This document shows, piece after piece, positions 14,413 to 22,604 of a stretch of DNA of 32,000 bases (within the stretch, counting starts at the first letter, position 1; each line of letters opens with the position of its first letter). The translations under genes and the position numbers were made by a program. Below the pieces are notes generated by a model. It did not search any database. It saw only the letters and a program-made list of their open reading frames with translations, and was not told where the DNA came from. Origin of the DNA: Labilithrix luteola (lineage in GTDB: Bacteria > Myxococcota_A > Polyangia > Polyangiales > Polyangiaceae); contig NZ_CP012333.1 in the NCBI RefSeq assembly GCF_001263205.1, positions 5,290,556 through 5,322,555 of the forward strand, in the 5' to 3' direction.

Positions 14413-14445
14413 GCCGAAGTCCGGTGAACGTCGCCGGACTTCGGC
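14413..14445 (+). terminator. 12-bp perfect stem-loop 15 nt after stop of 13559-14398
   Basis: gccgaagtccgg (14413-14424), a 9-nt loop, then ccggacttcggc (14434-14445). No U-tract follows, and the right arm also belongs to the first 42-bp repeat unit. Confidence 0.35.
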
Positions 14446-14703
14446 AGCGTCGTGAGTGGAGCTTCGCGAAAGTCCGCAGAGCTCGGCAGAGTCGAAAAGC
14501 GGTGCCGGTGAAGTCGCCGGACTTCGGCGCGGTCGAAAGCGGGCGCCGATGAAAGTCGCCGGACTTTCGGCGGAGTCGAAAAAGGGCACCGATAAAAGTC
14601 GCCGGACTTCGGCGGAGTCGAAAAAGGGCGCTGGCGAAAGTCGCTCGACTTCGGTGAAGTCGAAAGGGACGGTAGTGAAAGTCGCCGAACCAAAATCGAC
14701 GCC
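14426..14703. repeat. tandem array, about 6.5 units of 41-43 bp, each with an internal dyad (GAAGTC-GCCG-GACTTC type)
   Basis: Units start at 14426, 14468, 14510, 14551, 14594, 14636 and 14677 (partial). The consensus is roughly gaaagtcgccggacttcggcggagtcgaaaaagggcNccgat. Unit length varies between 41 and 43, so no constant reading frame exists. Confidence 0.85.
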
Positions 14704-15219: not shown

Positions 15220-15251
15220 GAGACTCTCAGGTGGAGGCGCCGGGAATCGAA
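15220..15251 (-). repeat. copy A of the tmRNA 3'-end/att core
   Basis: gagactctcaggtggaggcgccgggaatcgaa matches gagactcttaagtggaggcgccgggaatcgaa at 20449-20480 at 30/32 positions, in the same orientation. Confidence 0.8.
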
Positions 15252-15629
15252 AACAGGAGGAATCCCAGCAGAAGGCGCACGTTCCGGCACGAATCTGGAC
15301 GAGTGCATCGACGCCGACGAGCCGGCTCGAGCCGAAACTGGCCTGCCAAAACCGGAACCGTCGGAAGGAGTCGACACGACCGAGGACGCATTCGTTGCTC
15401 CGTCGGTAGGCGCCAGCGATGCCCGCTGCTCGGTCTCGGCCTCGGCCTCGGCCGCGTCGCTCGCTGCTGATGGCCAGGTACTGCGTCGCGATCCGATCGC
15501 TGCTCACTTTCGGTGGGGCCTGCGCGGTCGGCCATGAATCATCTGACTTGTGAGCGACCCTACCTGGAGGAGTTTAGCACCGCGCTACTCGAGATGATGG
15601 AGGCGGCGTGACGCCCTGCAATTACTCCT

Positions 15630-16058
15630 TCACGTGGGTGACACGGAAGCCGAACCCTTCGATGAGGGCCGCACGCAGCCGGTTTCCCCGTATGGGTATG
15701 CATGGGGCTCGTACTCCAGCCGAGCGTGGTCGGGCCGTACACGTCGAAGGCGAATCAGGTGATACTCACCGTTTCTGAACGCGTCGATCATCGACCCGAA
15801 GTCCCACGGCGTGACGAGGTTCGGGTCATCCATCCGCTTGTCCGCCGGCGTCGTTTGCCAGCGACGCAGCCAGTCGTGGCGCTCCGCCTCGGTCGGCCAC
15901 CAGAAACGCGAAAGCGCGTCGTCGTCGTCGAAGAAACGTGTCCAAAACTCATCATCCCGAAAGTCGTCGTCGGCCTTTGCCTTGGCCAGGGCGCCAACGA
16001 CCGCGCCGAGGCGCGCGTACGCCTCCTCGTTGTCGAACGTGAACTCGACGAAGGACAT
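15630..16058 (-). CDS. hypothetical acidic Trp-rich protein; C-terminus possibly frameshifted
   Basis: ORF 15630-16181. Start ATG 16058 is preferred (MSFVEFTFDNEEAYARLGAVVGAL..FWWPTEAERHDWLRRWQ..). After ..YPYGE the listed frame ends GCVRPSSKGSASVSPT*. The +1 frame reads ..RLRAALIEGFGFRVTHVKE* (stop 15622-15624) and looks more protein-like. Confidence 0.55.
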   Translation of the reverse strand: MSFVEFTFDNEEAYARLGAVVGALAKAKADDDFRDDEFWTRFFDDDDALSRFWWPTEAERHDWLRRWQTTPADKRMDDPNLVTPWDFGSMIDAFRNGEYHLIRLRRVRPDHARLEYEPHAYPYGETGCVRPSSKGSASVSPT

Positions 16059-16264
16059 GCGCGAACCTTTTTGACGCGCCGGCGTGCGGTCATCAACGGA
16101 AACAGCACATGCGATAACGACCCCCGGAAAACGCGAAGCCCCGACAGGTCGAGTCCAAAGCGCGAGGCCGCTGCTATCCAAACGCCATCAACCGTCGCGT
16201 GCCGCGGTGTCGGTTCGATCGTCCTTGGGCGGCGTGGATGCGCGAGGAGGGGGCTGGGGAGGGA

Positions 16265-16326
16265 GGAAGGGGAAGCGCAGCTCCCCTTTCGAACGAGGTT
16301 CTCAGGTGGATGCGCCGGGGCTCGAA
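16265..16326 (-). repeat. copy C of the tmRNA-flank hairpin + 3'-end/att core (degenerate)
   Basis: Hairpin ggaagggga/tcccctttc (16265-16290) is followed by tcgaacgaggttctcaggtggatgcgccggggctcgaa (16289-16326). This matches 20443-20480 at 31/38 positions, with the same hairpin-then-core layout as 20417-20480. Confidence 0.7.
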
Positions 16327-16744
16327 TTACTACAGAGGGCAGCAACCGAAAGACGAAGCGTGGTGCGGCCTTGGCCCAGTTCACTTCGCGACATCCGCTG
16401 GCCGTCCTTCCATCCCGTTCCGCCGCGTTCCGCCTCGTTCCCTCGCGAAGGTCGAGCTTTCGGCAGCCTGACGGCGCCTGTTTCCAAGTCGCGCCGCGCG
16501 TAACGGTTGTCGCCGGTGGGACATGTGCTCCTCACGAGGGGGTTGAATGCACGATCGACAAAGTTGCGGACTTCGACCACGGCGCCGCCCGTTCGATCTC
16601 GAAAAGCGGCGTGCAAGCGAAAGACGAAGGCTTCCACGCCCACCAGGACGGCCAGTCGGCTCTCACCAGCGAGAGCGGGGGGCGTTGGCTCGTCCGCGAC
16701 GACGACGTATGCTCGCCGTTTGCGTTCCCGCGGAGAACACGAAA

Positions 16745-17869
16745 ATGTCGAAACTTCTTCTCGAACAGGTCGAAAAGCATCGGAAGGAGATCAAACACGA
16801 GGTCATCACCTATGGCCTTTCGGAGCTCATCACGATGCACAAGGCCGAGGACATCCAGATCAGTCCCGACTACCAGCGAACGTTTCGTTGGAATCGCGAC
16901 CAGCAGACCCTGTTCATTGAATCCTTGATCCTGGAGATCCCGTTCCCCCCAGTGTTCTTTTACGAGAATGATGACGGGCGATGGGAGTTGCTCGACGGGC
17001 TCCAACGTCTTTCCACCATCATCAAGTTCATGGGAAGCGGGAAGGACGTCCCGGCCGATTGTCGTGGTGCGAGCAAGAACGAAGTCGACTGGCACGACGA
17101 TACGCAGAACATTCTGGCGGAGCCTCTCCAGCTTCGCGAGACGGAGTACCTGTCCGAGTTAGGTGGCTTCACGTTCGTAAGGTTGCCGACGTCCCTCCAG
17201 CTCAACTTGAAGAGGGCACGCATTCAAATCTACGTCCTGAAGCGAGAGACCCACTCTTCCTACAAGTACGAGGTGTTCAAGCGATTGAACTCCGGCGGCG
17301 AGCCTCTAAGCGAGCAAGAGGTCCGAAATTGCGCCACTCGTCTGTTCGACAATAAGTTCCCCGACTTCATTCAGAAGACCTCCGAGCTGCCAACATTTCG
17401 TCAGGCAATCAAGTTGGACGACGATGAGCTTCGCGCAGCTCGCGCAGACGAACTCACGCTCCGCTTCTTCACGATGAAGAACTGGCACGACGTGTTTAAA
17501 CACGACGTCGGCGAACTGCTCACCGAATTCATGAAGCATGTGGCATCGCAAAAGATCGAGTTCGACTACGATCAGGAACGCGGCCTCTTCGAGAAAACGT
17601 GGGCCGTGATAGCGGCGGCAGTCCCCAACGGGGCCATTTTTCGCCCTCGCGGAGGGGGTATGTTCTCACCGACCGTTTTTGAGCTCGTGTCGCTCGCCGT
17701 GGCCTTCAACATCGATGACGCTTTCGAGCTGGAGCCGGCGGCGCTTGCGCAAAAGCTGGACGAGCTCGTGGCGTCTGCGAAGGCGGAGGGCCTCACGGGC
17801 GCTGGAAGCAACTCTCGCAAGAAGACTCGCGGTCGCGTCGACAAGGCGCGGTCGTATCCGCTCAAATGA
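16745..17869 (+). CDS. DUF262 (ParB/Srx-like, GmrSD N-domain type) protein lacking a DUF1524/HNH half
   Basis: ATG 16745. The longer track ORF has an Arg-rich, implausible N-extension. Motifs: ..AEDIQISPDYQRTFRWNRDQQTLFIESLILEIPFPPVFFYENDDGRWELLDGLQRLSTIIKF (DGLQR at 16994-17008). The C-terminal 200 aa are helical with no His-Me/HNH-like motif seen. G+C is 28/60 in 16745-16804. Confidence 0.85.
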   Translation: MSKLLLEQVEKHRKEIKHEVITYGLSELITMHKAEDIQISPDYQRTFRWNRDQQTLFIESLILEIPFPPVFFYENDDGRWELLDGLQRLSTIIKFMGSGKDVPADCRGASKNEVDWHDDTQNILAEPLQLRETEYLSELGGFTFVRLPTSLQLNLKRARIQIYVLKRETHSSYKYEVFKRLNSGGEPLSEQEVRNCATRLFDNKFPDFIQKTSELPTFRQAIKLDDDELRAARADELTLRFFTMKNWHDVFKHDVGELLTEFMKHVASQKIEFDYDQERGLFEKTWAVIAAAVPNGAIFRPRGGGMFSPTVFELVSLAVAFNIDDAFELEPAALAQKLDELVASAKAEGLTGAGSNSRKKTRGRVDKARSYPLK

Positions 17870-18600
17870 GTTGCGCGACCGACTTCCTCGCGGGAACTGA
17901 TCCGGTGTTCAAAGAATGTACGGAGGGCATCGCTACCCTCTCGCGCATCGTCGTAGCGTGTCCTCAGGCGCTTGCGGGACAAGCGAGAGCGTCGTTAGTG
18001 CCCGCGCTCTACGCTTACTGGGAACGTTTTTTTCGGATTACCTTCGCCGAATTTCTGCGCTGCATCTCCGAGGCGAACATCCCGTTTGCAAATATCTGCA
18101 GCGCCCTGGCGCGCTTTAAGGTTCGTAAGCATGCACTTCTGCTCGATAGCTCGCATCGTGCGCGGATCCTGCACACGATCGACAATAGGAGCCTGACAGA
18201 CACCAAGGCGTTTCTTCAGGAAATCCTGAATGAGATGAACGATATCGACCGTGCTTTCGGGCAACCAGTTGTCTTCTTCGATCCGAGCGCTTGGATCGAG
18301 ACTGATTCCAATGTCCGCTACGAGGTCGTTGAGAAGGTCTGTCGAAACGTCGGCGTCGATCCTGAGGCCCTCAAGCAGATTCTCTCGGCCTCCAAGATCG
18401 CGCTGTATCCACGGCTCAAAGAGCTTGTGGACATGCGCAACGATATCGCGCATGGCACAACGATCGCCCCGCTCGGACAGTCGAAGTGGGACGAGCTGCA
18501 GTCGTTCGTCTCGACCCTGATGAATGCGGTACAGCTTCTACTCTACGAGACGCTTGCCAACGGTCAGCATCTCGCTCCGACCGCGTCAGTGCCGCCGTAG
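17866..18600 (+). CDS. HEPN-type (R-x4-H) putative RNase, MAE_28990/MAE_18760-like
   Basis: ATG 17866 overlaps the DUF262 stop (ATGA). The 244-aa protein has ..LYPRLKELVDMRNDIAHGTTI.. with R191 (18436-18438) and H196 (18451-18453) forming Rx4H near the C-terminal third, plus an N-terminal ..ALYAYWERFFRITFAEFL.. helix. Subfamily assignment is from memory. G+C is 28/60 in 18181-18240. Confidence 0.7.
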   Translation: MSCATDFLAGTDPVFKECTEGIATLSRIVVACPQALAGQARASLVPALYAYWERFFRITFAEFLRCISEANIPFANICSALARFKVRKHALLLDSSHRARILHTIDNRSLTDTKAFLQEILNEMNDIDRAFGQPVVFFDPSAWIETDSNVRYEVVEKVCRNVGVDPEALKQILSASKIALYPRLKELVDMRNDIAHGTTIAPLGQSKWDELQSFVSTLMNAVQLLLYETLANGQHLAPTASVPP

Positions 18601-19851
18601 TCGCAGGAGCGATTCGGTGTAGCTCCGAGTGTCGAGGTACCGGCGCGATTTGCTGTTGAGCGAGGTCATTACTCGCCGTACCGGCATGCGAAACATGATC
18701 TCGGCGCTCAGCCCCATCTCGCGAGCGATGTCGGCGAAAAGCGCGGCGAGATCAAGTTCGTGCTCCTTGTAGTAAGACGATTGCAGAACGAGAAGTGCTT
18801 GTCCGCGTGCAGTCAGCGTCCGGCGAATTTCAGCAAGTGATTCGTCTGCGTCGTTGAAGTACTGAAGCAGGTTGCGAAGGTAGTAACCCTTCGACCGGTG
18901 TGAAGGATGGTCTCGAACGCTTGCCAACACGCGGCGAAGTCGGCGCGGCCAATGTTCGGGGATTTCGTCTGTTCGAGGAGACCGGATCGCAGTCGTGCCC
19001 ATAAGCGCGCGCCGCAACGTCGCGAACGCCCCGGCGTCGCACCCTAGCACGGCGAGTTCCAAGCGGGTGGTGACTGCGTAGTCGATGCGCGTGCAGTACG
19101 GGGGGGAGCCCAGGATCAGGTGGACGCTTCGCGACGCTATGGGGAGCGAGCGTGCGTCTGCAAGCACAACACGCGATTTGTCAGCCAGGTCCTTCCGAGG
19201 AGGGTTCACACTCGCGTACTGCTCGGCGATGCGGACGAAGTCGCGGGAGATATCCCGCGTCGAAATGTTGATATTCGCGCCCGGCCGAGACCAGGTGGGA
19301 TTTGAGACCCGCGTTCGCGGGACGAGGTCGCTGACAGCGCGTACAAGTGCAAACAGTAGGAACGCGGCGCCCGGTGGGATGGCGGTCCAGTCGGCCGGAA
19401 TGTCGAACTCGCGACGTATCGCCGTTGCGATACCTTCCACGCGGCGCGCCGCGGACGTTGGCATCCATTGCTCAAGTTCGTCGATGGGGGCACTGGACGT
19501 AGCGATGCGCCGGGCGAGCGGCCGCGCAACTTCGACGGCCTTCAGCCGTTCGGGGGCAGGACAGAGCTTGGCTGCTGAAAGGACGACGGCAAATGGGTTC
19601 AGGTCGATACCGACCGCACGGTGACCTTCCTCGACCGCTGCGCAAAGCGTAGTACCGCTCCCCGCCCAAGGGTCGAGCACGAGTGAGCCGGGCCGGAGCT
19701 CCGCTTCGGCAATTGCGGCGGAGGCAAAGCGTGACGAAAATCCCGCGTAGTACGGGTACCAGGTATCGACGCCCTCATCCCGAGCCAGACGCTTCGGGTT
19801 GAGAACGAGGGGGAGCGCTTCCGTCATCGCGTGATGGCCCATTCGTATCAT
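18586..19851 (-). CDS. DNA amino-methyltransferase (N4-C or N6-A), motif order I..TRD..IV
   Basis: Motif I is VLDPWAGSGTT (19648-19674). AVGIDLNP follows. About 180 aa later comes motif IV, GSPPY (SPPY = 19096-19107), then ..EIRRTLTARGQALLVLQSSYY. Alternative starts are at 19842 and 19827. The 3' end overlaps the convergent HEPN gene by 15 bp. Confidence 0.85.
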   Translation of the reverse strand: MIRMGHHAMTEALPLVLNPKRLARDEGVDTWYPYYAGFSSRFASAAIAEAELRPGSLVLDPWAGSGTTLCAAVEEGHRAVGIDLNPFAVVLSAAKLCPAPERLKAVEVARPLARRIATSSAPIDELEQWMPTSAARRVEGIATAIRREFDIPADWTAIPPGAAFLLFALVRAVSDLVPRTRVSNPTWSRPGANINISTRDISRDFVRIAEQYASVNPPRKDLADKSRVVLADARSLPIASRSVHLILGSPPYCTRIDYAVTTRLELAVLGCDAGAFATLRRALMGTTAIRSPRTDEIPEHWPRRLRRVLASVRDHPSHRSKGYYLRNLLQYFNDADESLAEIRRTLTARGQALLVLQSSYYKEHELDLAALFADIAREMGLSAEIMFRMPVRRVMTSLNSKSRRYLDTRSYTESLLRLRRH

Positions 19852-19883
19852 GGACCGGCTTCACATCGTCGGAGGTTCCCCTC

Positions 19884-20144
19884 GTGGCGGTGACGCCGGC
19901 CCTCGTTGTGGACAGAAGCATCGCGCTCGAGTGGTTGAGCGTCGAGCTTCGATGTGGCCTCCTCACCGTCGAACGGTTGGAGTGAAAGGGCAAAGTCACG
20001 GAGACGAAGGGCATGGAGTATCGTGTCGCCGCGATGACGCAGCGGTTCAAGAACGCTCTGGCCGCTCATCGCGATCTAAGGAAGCGCGTGCTGTACACCG
20101 ACGAAGGCGGGCTCTTGTCGAAGATCGACCCATCAACGCCGTGG
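19884..20144 (+). pseudogene. tyrosine recombinase (integrase) internal fragment with in-frame stop
   Basis: Translation: ..VAVTPALVVDRSIALEWLSVELRCGLLTVERLE*KGKVTETKGMEYRVAAMTQRFKNALAAHRDLRKRVLYTDEGGLLS... The pattern W.(D)V.L..G.L.V.RSEWKG.V..TKG...R.VPMT.RL..AL..HR is typical of phage-type integrases. TGA at 19983-19985 replaces the expected Trp. Both the N-terminal and the catalytic C-terminal parts are missing. Confidence 0.5.
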
Positions 20145-20821
<677 letters not shown>

Positions 20822-20904: not shown

Positions 20905-21504
20905 ATGCGCCCCCTCTTCTTCTGCCTGTTCTCGGCGCTCGCGACGCTCCCGACCGTCGCGGTAGCGGTCGCCGCGGCAAGCCTCGGCGGCTGCTCGAGG
21001 GCAGGGGCGGGGGTCGTCGCGCCGGTCGAGCTTGCGATTGGACCGGTCGACGCGGGGGCAGAGAACGCCGACACCGGCGCGGCGCAGAAGCCCGAGAAGA
21101 AGAAGACGTGCACCGCCCAGCTCATGGCGGGCGAGATCGATACCGGGCCTGGGTGCGTGCTCGACGAGCGGATCAGCCATGGCCCCGGAAAGCTCATGTA
21201 CCCCTGCGAGGGGGACGGGGCTGCGCAGGCCTCGTTCGACGATCAGGTCTACGACGGCAAGGTTGTCGGGAACGTCCTCACGCTTCGCCTGACCACCGAG
21301 CTCGACTGGGAAGACGGCTGCCGATGGCAGTCAGAGCACATGCTCGGTGGGCGCCTGATTCGCGGGGAAGCCGTCGAGGACGATCCCGTCGAGCCGCTCC
21401 AGTGGCGCTACGAAGACCGTGCCATCTCGGGACGCAACTGCTCGGGCGCGTGTCTGGCTCAGGCCGAGATCGAGGTCGTGCGCAACGTCGGCAGCGACGA
21501 CTGA
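20905..21504 (+). CDS. lipoprotein, unknown function
   Basis: ORF 20734-21504 overlaps ssrA, so ATG 20905 is preferred. It gives MRPLFFCLFSALATLPTVAVAVAAASLGGC (an LGGC lipobox). The product is 199 aa with 6 further Cys. Confidence 0.7.
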   Translation: MRPLFFCLFSALATLPTVAVAVAAASLGGCSRAGAGVVAPVELAIGPVDAGAENADTGAAQKPEKKKTCTAQLMAGEIDTGPGCVLDERISHGPGKLMYPCEGDGAAQASFDDQVYDGKVVGNVLTLRLTTELDWEDGCRWQSEHMLGGRLIRGEAVEDDPVEPLQWRYEDRAISGRNCSGACLAQAEIEVVRNVGSDD

Positions 21505-21554
21505 ACACAACGCCCACGCGGGCGTCGCAAATCAATCACGGCTATCCTTGGCTC

Positions 21555-22604
21555 ATGTTCACGGCGCCCCTCGGCGGTCGGTACGCTGTCCAGAGCGAAC
21601 TTGCGAGCGGTGGCAGTGGGCGCATTTATCTGGCCGAAGACCTGAGGCTCGGTCGGCCAGTCGTGGTGAAGATCGTCGCGACGTCACTCCAAGCGTCCCT
21701 CGACGAGGCCGTGCGACGCCTCGAGCGCGAGGCCCGCGTCGCCGGAGGCATCCATCATCCGAACGTCTGCGCCGTGTCAGACTTCGGGAAGCTCGATGAC
21801 GGGCGGCCCTTCCTCGTGATGGAGCACTTGACCGGCGAGTCGCTCGCCACGCGCCTTGGGCGCGAGCGTTCGCTGCCGATCGCGGTCGCGATGGACTTCG
21901 CGTACCAGATGCTCGGCGGGCTCGACGCCGCGCATCGCCGCGGGGTCATTCATCGCGACATCAAGCCGGAGAACCTGTTCCTCATCGAGATCGGGCTCGG
22001 GAGACATCTCCTCAAGGTGCTCGACTTCGGCACCGCTCAGGTGCTCGACACATCCTCGCCGTACGGCGACGAGCTCACGGACACCGATCGCGTGATGGGG
22101 ACGATGGCATACATGTCGCCCGAGCAGCTGAAGGGCGTGCGCGACTTCGACGCGCGTACCGACGTGTACTCGGCCGCGGTCGTCATCTACGAGATGCTCG
22201 TCGGGACGCGACCGTTCGGTGATGTGCCGAGCGATCGTCTCGCCGAAGCGATCGCGTTCACCCGGGCTCCGTCGATCTTGCACAGACTGCCGAACCTCGC
22301 GCACCCGGTGGCACGCGCGATCGACACAGCCCTCTCCGTCGATCGAACGCGTCGTCCGGCCGACGCCGCAGCGTTCCTCGCGATGCTCGCCGCGCCGCCG
22401 TCGCCGACGAGCATCGTCGATCGATCGGTACCCGAAGCCGATCCGTTGCAGATCATTTCCGACTGGGATTTGCCCACCCATCAGAACCGCGCGCAGGATG
22501 ATTGGGACCTCGTGACACTGGAGCGCGATCGTCGCGCGCTGGTGGCGTCGAACGAGGACGTGCTTTCCATCGATGTGAAGATCGACCGAGAACCGCTTCG
22601 CTAA
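21555..22604 (+). CDS. Ser/Thr protein kinase (Hanks type), soluble
   Basis: ATG 21555. Motifs: GSGRIYLAED..VVVKIV (Gly-loop and Lys), HRDIKPENLF (catalytic loop), VLDFGTA (DFG) and MAYMSPEQ (APE-like). The N-terminal part of the track ORF 21108-22604 is Arg-rich junk. Confidence 0.9.
   Translation: MFTAPLGGRYAVQSELASGGSGRIYLAEDLRLGRPVVVKIVATSLQASLDEAVRRLEREARVAGGIHHPNVCAVSDFGKLDDGRPFLVMEHLTGESLATRLGRERSLPIAVAMDFAYQMLGGLDAAHRRGVIHRDIKPENLFLIEIGLGRHLLKVLDFGTAQVLDTSSPYGDELTDTDRVMGTMAYMSPEQLKGVRDFDARTDVYSAAVVIYEMLVGTRPFGDVPSDRLAEAIAFTRAPSILHRLPNLAHPVARAIDTALSVDRTRRPADAAAFLAMLAAPPSPTSIVDRSVPEADPLQIISDWDLPTHQNRAQDDWDLVTLERDRRALVASNEDVLSIDVKIDREPLR

Follow-up and report, generated by a model that had tools for sequence, protein, structure and literature searches.

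What do three closely packed genes beside the ssrA gene of the bacterium Labilithrix luteola encode, and do they act together? The stretch of DNA analyzed here, called the window throughout, comprises 32,000 nucleotides of this genome (NZ_CP012333.1 of assembly GCF_001263205.1, positions 5,290,556–5,322,555 of the forward strand), and coordinates are window positions unless another locus is named. Gene A encodes a DUF262/ParB-like protein, gene B, which overlaps its stop codon, a small HEPN protein, and gene M, on the opposite strand, an amino-methyltransferase (Table 1). A first-pass annotation had proposed the set as an uncharacterized defense module. We find that it adds one more example to a type of system already known: it is a distant relative of the Escherichia coli anti-phage system PD-T4-2, and the association of such a gene pair with a methylase is already on record. 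Judged from its sequence, the locus is probably a PD-T4-2-type anti-phage module in a methylase-linked form, carried on a small ssrA islet that lacks an integrase, and we hold with slightly greater confidence still that it is homologous to a real defense system.

Each of the three genes is genuine and intact, and the window copies carry every residue conserved in their respective families. The reading frames of A and B, the DGLQR and R-x4-H motifs (the latter RNDIAH), the ATGA overlap and the 15-bp overlap between B and the convergent SPPY methylase were all recovered where the first-pass annotation had placed them, and its counts of G+C in sampled 60-mers (28/60, 28/60 and 42/60) were reproduced. 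Over whole genes, G+C is 56.6% in A, 56.9% in B and 62.7% in M, vs. 65.6–65.9% in the flanks. A scan for sigma-70 promoters gave no match, which is the expected outcome for the host phylum.

Protein A has the features of a DUF262 sensor. The DUF262 domain proposed earlier is borne out by Pfam (PF03235 GmrSD_N, E = 5.6e-29, residues 28–196), and so is the lack of a nuclease half of the DUF1524/HNH type: A has no DUF1524 match in Pfam at E ≤ 1, and no DUF1524 gene adjoins it. The three motifs that define DUF262 (PMC12065111) are all present, and the C-terminal part is a helical domain like that of NsnA (“ParBDB”). The top PADLOC match of A is NsnA (E = 2e-58, residues 13–369 on model positions 41–376 of 385), and it also matches PD-T4-2_A (E = 2e-43, residues 26–369 on model positions 41–358 of 363). 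Foldseek comparison of its AlphaFold2 model (predicted local distance difference test score, pLDDT, 88) with the Protein Data Bank (PDB) places ParB-N and BrxU on top, both weakly (E = 0.03–0.06). Sequence searches of the PDB returned nothing close for A, B or M, and NCBIfam returned nothing useful for A or B. By analogy with the sensor role described for DUF262 proteins (PMC10952713, PMC12065111), A is predicted to be a nucleoside triphosphate (NTP)-dependent DNA sensor.

Protein B is predicted from its sequence to be an RNase effector. The HEPN assignment made from the letters alone holds for two Pfam families, PF18735 HEPN_RiboL-PSP (E = 4e-16, 59.9 bits with a cut-off of 28.4) and PF18737 HEPN_MAE_28990 (E = 1e-11, 45.7 bits with a cut-off of 26.8). 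Across 86 B-type partners, the only near-invariant positions are Y49, E53, N149 and R191-N192..H196-G197, the last of which make up the Rx4H motif and its surroundings. The AlphaFold2 model, predicted from a 29-sequence alignment, is helical throughout (pLDDT 93), and its Foldseek matches in the PDB are unrelated helical bundles; the best sequence match there, at E = 0.027, is a CRISPR-associated protein. No defense model in PADLOC matched B. A search of 1.84 billion proteins gave 1046 representatives of the family at E ≤ 1e-3, among which 36 reach E ≤ 1e-30. Public annotation (AKJ09_05146) gives B as 200 residues, leaving out the 44 residues encoded at 17866–17997. Because these first 44 residues are conserved in 28 homologs, with F7, C18, G21 and L25 invariant, the 244-residue ATGA-coupled start is supported, and the annotated start is probably wrong.

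Genes of the two families travel together almost without fail. We assembled 14 metagenome loci by searching with B and 80 genome loci by searching with A. Among the 92 loci with an open reading frame (ORF) for A, 89 have a B-family ORF directly downstream as judged by hidden Markov models; of the other three, one has a PF18735-positive partner and two are ended by contig ends. A-to-B synteny thus holds in every locus with room for B and is essentially universal, which bears out the earlier view of A and B as a conserved coupled pair. All 86 downstream partners of A homologs match PF18735 and 85 match PF18737. In 87/88 loci, a start codon of the B frame is no more than 20 nt from where A stops, 24 loci share the identical 4-nt overlap, and pairwise identities of A and B are correlated across loci (rho 0.83). 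The wider family is common on contigs of prophages, on plasmids and on a P2-like phage, and PD-T4-2 lies in a P4-like satellite; such carriage on mobile elements fits a role in defense. Two loci depart from the usual layout. In a Nitrospirae metagenome-assembled genome (L021:2241-5615), A is cut to about 245 residues and a 456-residue ORF lies between A and B, probably through insertion of a mobile element. In Stomatobaculum longum (L090:7085-8344), the HEPN partner is a 419-residue ORF. GNAT acetyltransferase models (PF13302, E = 4e-27) are also matched by a single partner in the set; this is presumably the same ORF, which suggests a HEPN-GNAT fusion.

Is such a pair known to act against phages? 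PD-T4-2 is listed as “DUF262, HEPN” from E. coli ECOR65 and protects both K-12 and ECOR65 itself against T4 (Vassallo et al. 2022, PMC9519451). Its deletion was tested in native ECOR65, H127A of PD-T4-2B, which alters the HEPN histidine, is among four mutants reported to lose protection, and the top HHpred matches of PD-T4-2B are PF18735 (97.8%) and PF18737 (96.9%) (PMC9519451). We recovered the system through a 50-nt lambda-red arm in Table S8 of Vassallo et al. and found it in 17 complete E. coli genomes; the reference copy used here is L099 in E. coli 2009C-3133 (NZ_CP013025.1 3548901-3558950), with PD-T4-2A at L099:5001-6092. There it forms one end of a P4-like satellite that carries psu, ogr/delta and primase-helicase genes, directly beside the integrase and ssrA-smpB. 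DNA similarity starting from an Aggregatibacter locus did not find PD-T4-2, and searches from E. coli plasmid pairs reached other DUF262-HEPN pairs (IncF, IncX1, lambdoid prophage) and not PD-T4-2.

The two systems are alike in architecture. A aligns with PD-T4-2A over residues 19–368 (28% identity, BLASTP E = 1e-36, hhalign 99.9%), and both operons consist of two genes, a DUF262 protein of about 365 residues without a nuclease half and then a small HEPN protein. The HEPN gene follows at once on the same strand, with a 4-nt gap in PD-T4-2 (L099: 6095, 6100) and the ATGA overlap here. B and PD-T4-2B share only the Pfam families PF18735/PF18737 (clusters of PD-T4-2B carry PF18735) and an Rx4H motif with an invariant histidine: R122 and H127 are invariant in the PD-T4-2B family, and H127 is equivalent to H196 of B. 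Both elements also lie beside ssrA, with an integrase at PD-T4-2 and none in the window islet. They differ in the size of the effector (244 residues in B vs. 167 in PD-T4-2B) and in the methylase, which PD-T4-2 lacks. A defense role for the pair, as first proposed, is therefore the best reading through homology to a tested system, but the pair cannot be called uncharacterized, since at the level of architecture the combination of DUF262 with a RiboL-PSP/MAE_28990 HEPN protein is PD-T4-2, already named and tested (PMC9519451). E. coli itself holds at least four mutually distant DUF262-HEPN pairs (L095, L096, L098, L099), sited on an IncFIA/FIC plasmid, on an IncX1 plasmid beside its replication gene, in the capsid region of a lambdoid prophage and on the P4-like satellite, with HEPN partners of 211, 180, 182 and 167 residues. 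PADLOC made no confident PD-T4-2_B call for the partners tested from L095, L096 and L098 (0/3), and aligning the E. coli HEPN partners one by one with the B profile in hhalign gave no usable signal.

Nor is the three-gene set new to the literature. Table 1 of Anantharaman et al. 2013 has entries for Ribo L-PSP-HEPN, with ParB in the operon, and for MAE_28990, and it records a HEPN gene that shares an operon with ParB and a DNA methylase (PMC3710099). These are exactly the three components of the window, and B matches both HEPN families. No other description comes closer to the gene set; the table entry differs in being computational only, with no name, experiment or gene order attached (PMC3710099). 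Beyond that table, we found no paper naming or testing the form with methylase, DUF262 and HEPN. In later reviews, PD-T4-2, Menshen and Dazbog form a set of uncharacterized DUF262 systems without DUF1524. Menshen (NsnABC) resembles the module in that NsnA, like A, combines ParB-DUF262 with a C-terminal helical “ParBDB” part and carries the three motifs (PMC12065111; Millman 2022), but the module is not a Menshen system: by PADLOC, the NsnB ATPase and the NsnC effector are absent, a HEPN gene follows A, and none of the 86 B-type partners matches NsnB or NsnC. GmrSD, BrxU and SspE likewise share the DUF262 NTPase-type sensor with DGxQR, and BrxU is among the top, weak structural matches of A; there the effector is a fused DUF1524 DNase, whereas here it is a separate predicted RNase, and the absence of a DUF1524 His-Me/HNH domain in or beside A rules out a GmrSD-type Type IV enzyme. 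Membership in Dazbog (DzbAB) is ruled out as well, with no DzbA match for A at E ≤ 1 and only 1/86 partners touching DzbB (E = 8e-4).

The methylase raises a further question, namely whether M belongs to the module or merely adjoins it. By its motifs, M is an intact amino-methylase. It matches the Pfam N6_N4_Mtase family at the S-adenosylmethionine (AdoMet) motif alone and the PADLOC model MTase_II at E = 6e-24, and motif I precedes motif IV with about 190 residues between them. The PADLOC search also gave a weak REase_II match (PDLC03418), which suggests that DUF262 genes beside the M family may already be catalogued as restriction genes. The pair has a homolog of M next to it (phmmer E = 1e-33 to 1e-127) in 42/80 genome loci and in 4 metagenome loci. 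Neighbor clustering over all loci with the pair places 38/43 M-type ORFs directly upstream of A in the same orientation, separated from it by a median of 4 bp. Eight further genome loci instead have an unrelated N6_N4 methylase of about 320 residues (PF01555, E = 1e-41). In a neighbor-joining tree of A, methylase presence is structured by clade: one large clade has the M-type enzyme, another large clade is free of methylases, and the subclade of the window always has one or the other methylase type. The E. coli pairs, PD-T4-2 included, fall outside all methylase-linked clades and have no methylase.

The association also holds when approached from the methylase. A search of IMG/VR with the methylase alone returned 19 full-length homologs, and in 16 of the 18 loci with room A follows immediately; B is also present wherever the contig continues past A. 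Two M-family methylases in IMG/VR (L114 and L116, 33–34% identity) have no A-B pair downstream. The M family is found almost only next to such pairs. Pairwise identities of A and M are correlated (rho 0.48, Mantel P = 0.001), and for each of M, A and B of the window the nearest relatives are those in L001 and L015. The suggestion that the methylase might be an unrelated neighbor with a separate history is contradicted by the two sets of counts and by these shared relatives. M is convergent to B in the window, L001 and L015, lies further off in L016 and is codirectional in L017; it has moved downstream in this Myxococcota subclade relative to the usual M-A-B order.

Some relatives hold a fourth gene. 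A XhoI-family endonuclease (PF04555, E = 1e-77 to 1e-82) lies beside the methylase in 11 loci, with either methylase type: in L010 and L020 the order is M-XhoI-A-B, and in about nine loci it accompanies the second type. The window contains no ORF or fragment of a XhoI-family or other endonuclease, and no XhoI remnant is present in its closest relatives. Nor is the XhoI site CTCGAG avoided in the window, where 37 sites occur vs. 25.8 expected from shuffles. No CTCGAG lies in the 4.3 kb at 15594–19925, which includes the module; lower G+C accounts for part of this, and its significance is doubtful.

How might the parts work together? In GmrSD, BrxU and SspE, the DUF262 domain reads DNA modification and NTP hydrolysis switches on the nuclease (PMC10952713, PMC12065111). 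By analogy, A would bind DNA, read its modification state and then activate B, probably inside an A-B complex. The Rx4H site of B would cleave RNA (tRNA or mRNA), as the H127A result for PD-T4-2 implies, and so keep the phage from growing, perhaps to the detriment of the cell itself. That A senses foreign or modified DNA and that RNA damage follows, as the first-pass annotation had it, is plausible on this analogy. M would mark host DNA so that A-B stays off on self, following the logic of restriction-modification (R-M) with an RNase in place of the DNase, and supplying this self mark is the most likely role for M by the same comparison. That unmethylated DNA is what triggers the RNase is a more tentative suggestion, which we would not favor, and the complete scheme of an R-M system that cuts RNA (M marks self, A detects unmarked DNA, B is switched on) is slightly less likely again.

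Several observations weigh against reading the locus as a methylase-linked relative of PD-T4-2. The PADLOC model PD-T4-2_B matches neither B (E ≤ 1) nor any of the 86 partners, and hhalign of the B family against the PD-T4-2B family covers 22 columns around Rx4H with a probability of 12% (E = 0.0024); because the profiles align over these columns alone, orthology of the effectors is unproven. Foldseek found no solved HEPN structure in the PDB like the B model and nothing below E = 0.4, and the literature searched held no published mechanism for PD-T4-2. As for the methylase, about 30 of the 80 relatives have none adjacent, and their flanks hold no recurrent DNA methylase; given these relatives and PD-T4-2, the pair cannot require methylation in general. 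In the 11 loci with a XhoI-family endonuclease of its own, the methylase could be a plain Type II component, and in the window M is convergent, not cotranscribed with the pair, and higher in G+C than A and B.

The points concerning the methylase are those on which a rival account would rest, in which A and B are a stand-alone pair like PD-T4-2 and the methylase is the surviving half of a XhoI-like Type II R-M system with no functional tie to them. Methylase-free PD-T4-2 and its roughly 30 methylase-free relatives fit this account, as do the orientation and G+C of M in the window, the endonuclease that separates the methylase from A in L010 and L020 and adjoins the second methylase type in about nine loci, and the weaker correlation of A with M than of A with B. 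The window has the methylase motifs expected of a Type II system and no cognate endonuclease. Across many phyla, the 38/43 M-type ORFs that abut A do so without an endonuclease, the 16/18 methylase homologs followed immediately by the pair came from a search independent of A, and no XhoI remnant was seen in the window or its closest relatives; a relic would not remain intact and operonic for so long. We therefore consider a functionless leftover unlikely and lean, though not strongly, toward M being a functional partner of A-B.

In the PrrC model, which Anantharaman et al. proposed for HEPN families linked to R-M systems (PMC3710099), B would be a latent RNase kept inactive by the modification or restriction partner and set free once that partner is attacked by an anti-restriction protein of a phage. 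The likeness to PrrC/EcoprrI lies in the combination of a latent RNase with DNA-modification genes, an analogy that PMC3710099 itself draws for R-M-linked HEPN genes, and loci with methylase, XhoI, A and B would be consistent with a backup defense to a Type II system. There is, however, no sequence relationship to PrrC, and the window has no Type I system. Most methylase-linked loci, that of the window included, have no endonuclease to guard, the universal and conserved partner of the RNase is the DUF262 protein and not the methylase, and PD-T4-2 works with A and B alone, all of which make a guard of this kind improbable. Equally improbable is an addiction module in which M acts as an epigenetic antitoxin to an A-B toxin and mainly stabilizes the ssrA islet rather than stopping phages. 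Sets of genes resembling R-M systems behave as selfish addiction modules, which counts in its favor, and the islet consists of the three genes alone, with no integrase. Against it, the homologous PD-T4-2 has a phage phenotype, and one third of the relatives have no methylase and hence no “antitoxin”; addiction and defense are in any case not mutually exclusive.

The setting of the module in the genome is that of an islet at ssrA. ARAGORN and Rfam locate the transfer-messenger RNA (tmRNA) gene alongside the module, in line with the ssrA linkage given in the first-pass annotation, and because the 3′ end of this gene recurs at the distal boundary, A, B and M occupy a 4.1-kb segment and are alone in it (Table 1). 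The integrase relic that was said to lie next to them was not reproduced: Pfam searches of 13 flanking ORFs, tblastn of the window with a P4-type integrase and a scan for tyrosine-recombinase signatures found no integrase. Relatives of the module are not beside tRNA or tmRNA genes, so the ssrA site is particular to the window copy.

Table 1. Coordinates of the genes, motifs and islet boundaries in the window
Feature	Position	Strand	Details and evidence
Gene A	16745-17869	+	374 residues; DUF262/ParB-like protein (ORF list)
DUF262 motif I QRxxxW (QRTFRW)	16874-16891	+	Q44, R45, W49 invariant in 34 homologs
DUF262 motif II DGxQR (DGLQR), predicted nucleotide-binding center	16994-17008	+	D84, G85, L86, Q87, R88 invariant (34 homologs)
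DUF262 motif III FxxxN (FKRLN)	17276-17290	+	F178, N182 invariant (34 homologs)
ATGA stop/start overlap of A and B (translational coupling)	17866-17869	+	Script check of sequence
Gene B	17866-18600	+	244 residues; all-helical HEPN protein, RiboL-PSP / MAE_28990 family (ORF list)
Second conserved patch of B, YAYWERFF	18010-18033	+	Y49, E53 nearly invariant
N149 of B, invariant	18310-18312	+	Homolog alignments
HEPN Rx4H motif RNDIAH (R191..H196)	18436-18453	+	R191, N192, H196, G197 at least 90% conserved in 86 partners
Convergent 3′-end overlap of B and M, 15 bp	18586-18600	.	ORF list and script check
Gene M	18586-19851	-	421 residues; amino-methyltransferase, N6-adenine or N4-cytosine class (ORF list)
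Methyltransferase motif IV SPPY (M residues 249-252), catalytic	19096-19107	-	S249, P250, P251, Y252 invariant (42 homologs)
Methyltransferase motif I VLDPWAGSG (M residue 58), AdoMet-binding	19654-19680	-	D60, P61, W62, G64, G66 invariant in 42 homologs
ssrA (tmRNA), 3′ end facing the module	20458(/20460)-20821	-	ARAGORN; Rfam RF00023, 164.8 bits
att-like: last 21 nt of ssrA and 11 nt downstream, proximal islet boundary	20449-20480	.	Direct-repeat family D5 and alignment
Degenerate copy of ssrA 3′ end, 84%, distal islet boundary	16295-16326	.	Direct-repeat family D5 and alignment
Second copy of ssrA 3′ end, 94%, better preserved	15220-15251	.	Direct-repeat family D5 and alignment

Beyond the distal boundary, the better preserved copy of the ssrA 3′ end is, by its sequence, the mark of another, tandem insertion remnant. 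The 1 kb between the two copies (15252–16294) contains a 183-residue ORF on the reverse strand (15630–16181) without a Pfam match and may represent what is left of an earlier insertion at this site. Further out, positions 14421–14687 hold 6.4 copies of a 42-bp tandem repeat with 73% matches. On the proximal side, the stretch between M and ssrA contains a tandem repeat of 120 bp (20143–20442, 2.4 copies, 88% matches), each unit of which has a hairpin with a 15-bp stem (−31.6 kcal/mol, z −3.9) and one CTCGAG site. The same hairpin directly follows the 3′ end of ssrA, and a further copy of its core (family D6) is at 16266–16286, beside the distal ssrA remnant. Past ssrA, the ORF at 21108–22604 has the signature HRDIKPENL of a Ser/Thr protein kinase; it is a host gene of a kind usual in this phylum and has no relation to the module.

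What the analysis adds to the existing record is a quantified linkage of A to B and of M to A, the occurrence of two alternative methylases and occasionally a XhoI-type endonuclease, the rearranged gene order in one clade, the boundaries of the ssrA islet, and an effector that PADLOC models miss. For annotation, this last point means that current PADLOC models would catch only the first gene and so miss the system. For biology, the methylase-linked relatives offer a handle on what the DUF262 protein of PD-T4-2-type systems senses: a methylase family almost dedicated to the pair points to the methylation state of DNA as the signal. A compact M-A-B operon is present in several cultured strains, including Parageobacillus thermantarcticus M1, Paenibacillus cookii, Pseudoalteromonas distincta ATCC 700518 and Ruegeria lacuscaerulensis, which makes the idea directly testable. 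If it were true, such systems would couple epigenetic discrimination of self from nonself to the shut-off of translation and not to DNA cleavage, and the PD-T4-2 branch, which lacks the methylase, would have switched to sensing DNA modified by phages.

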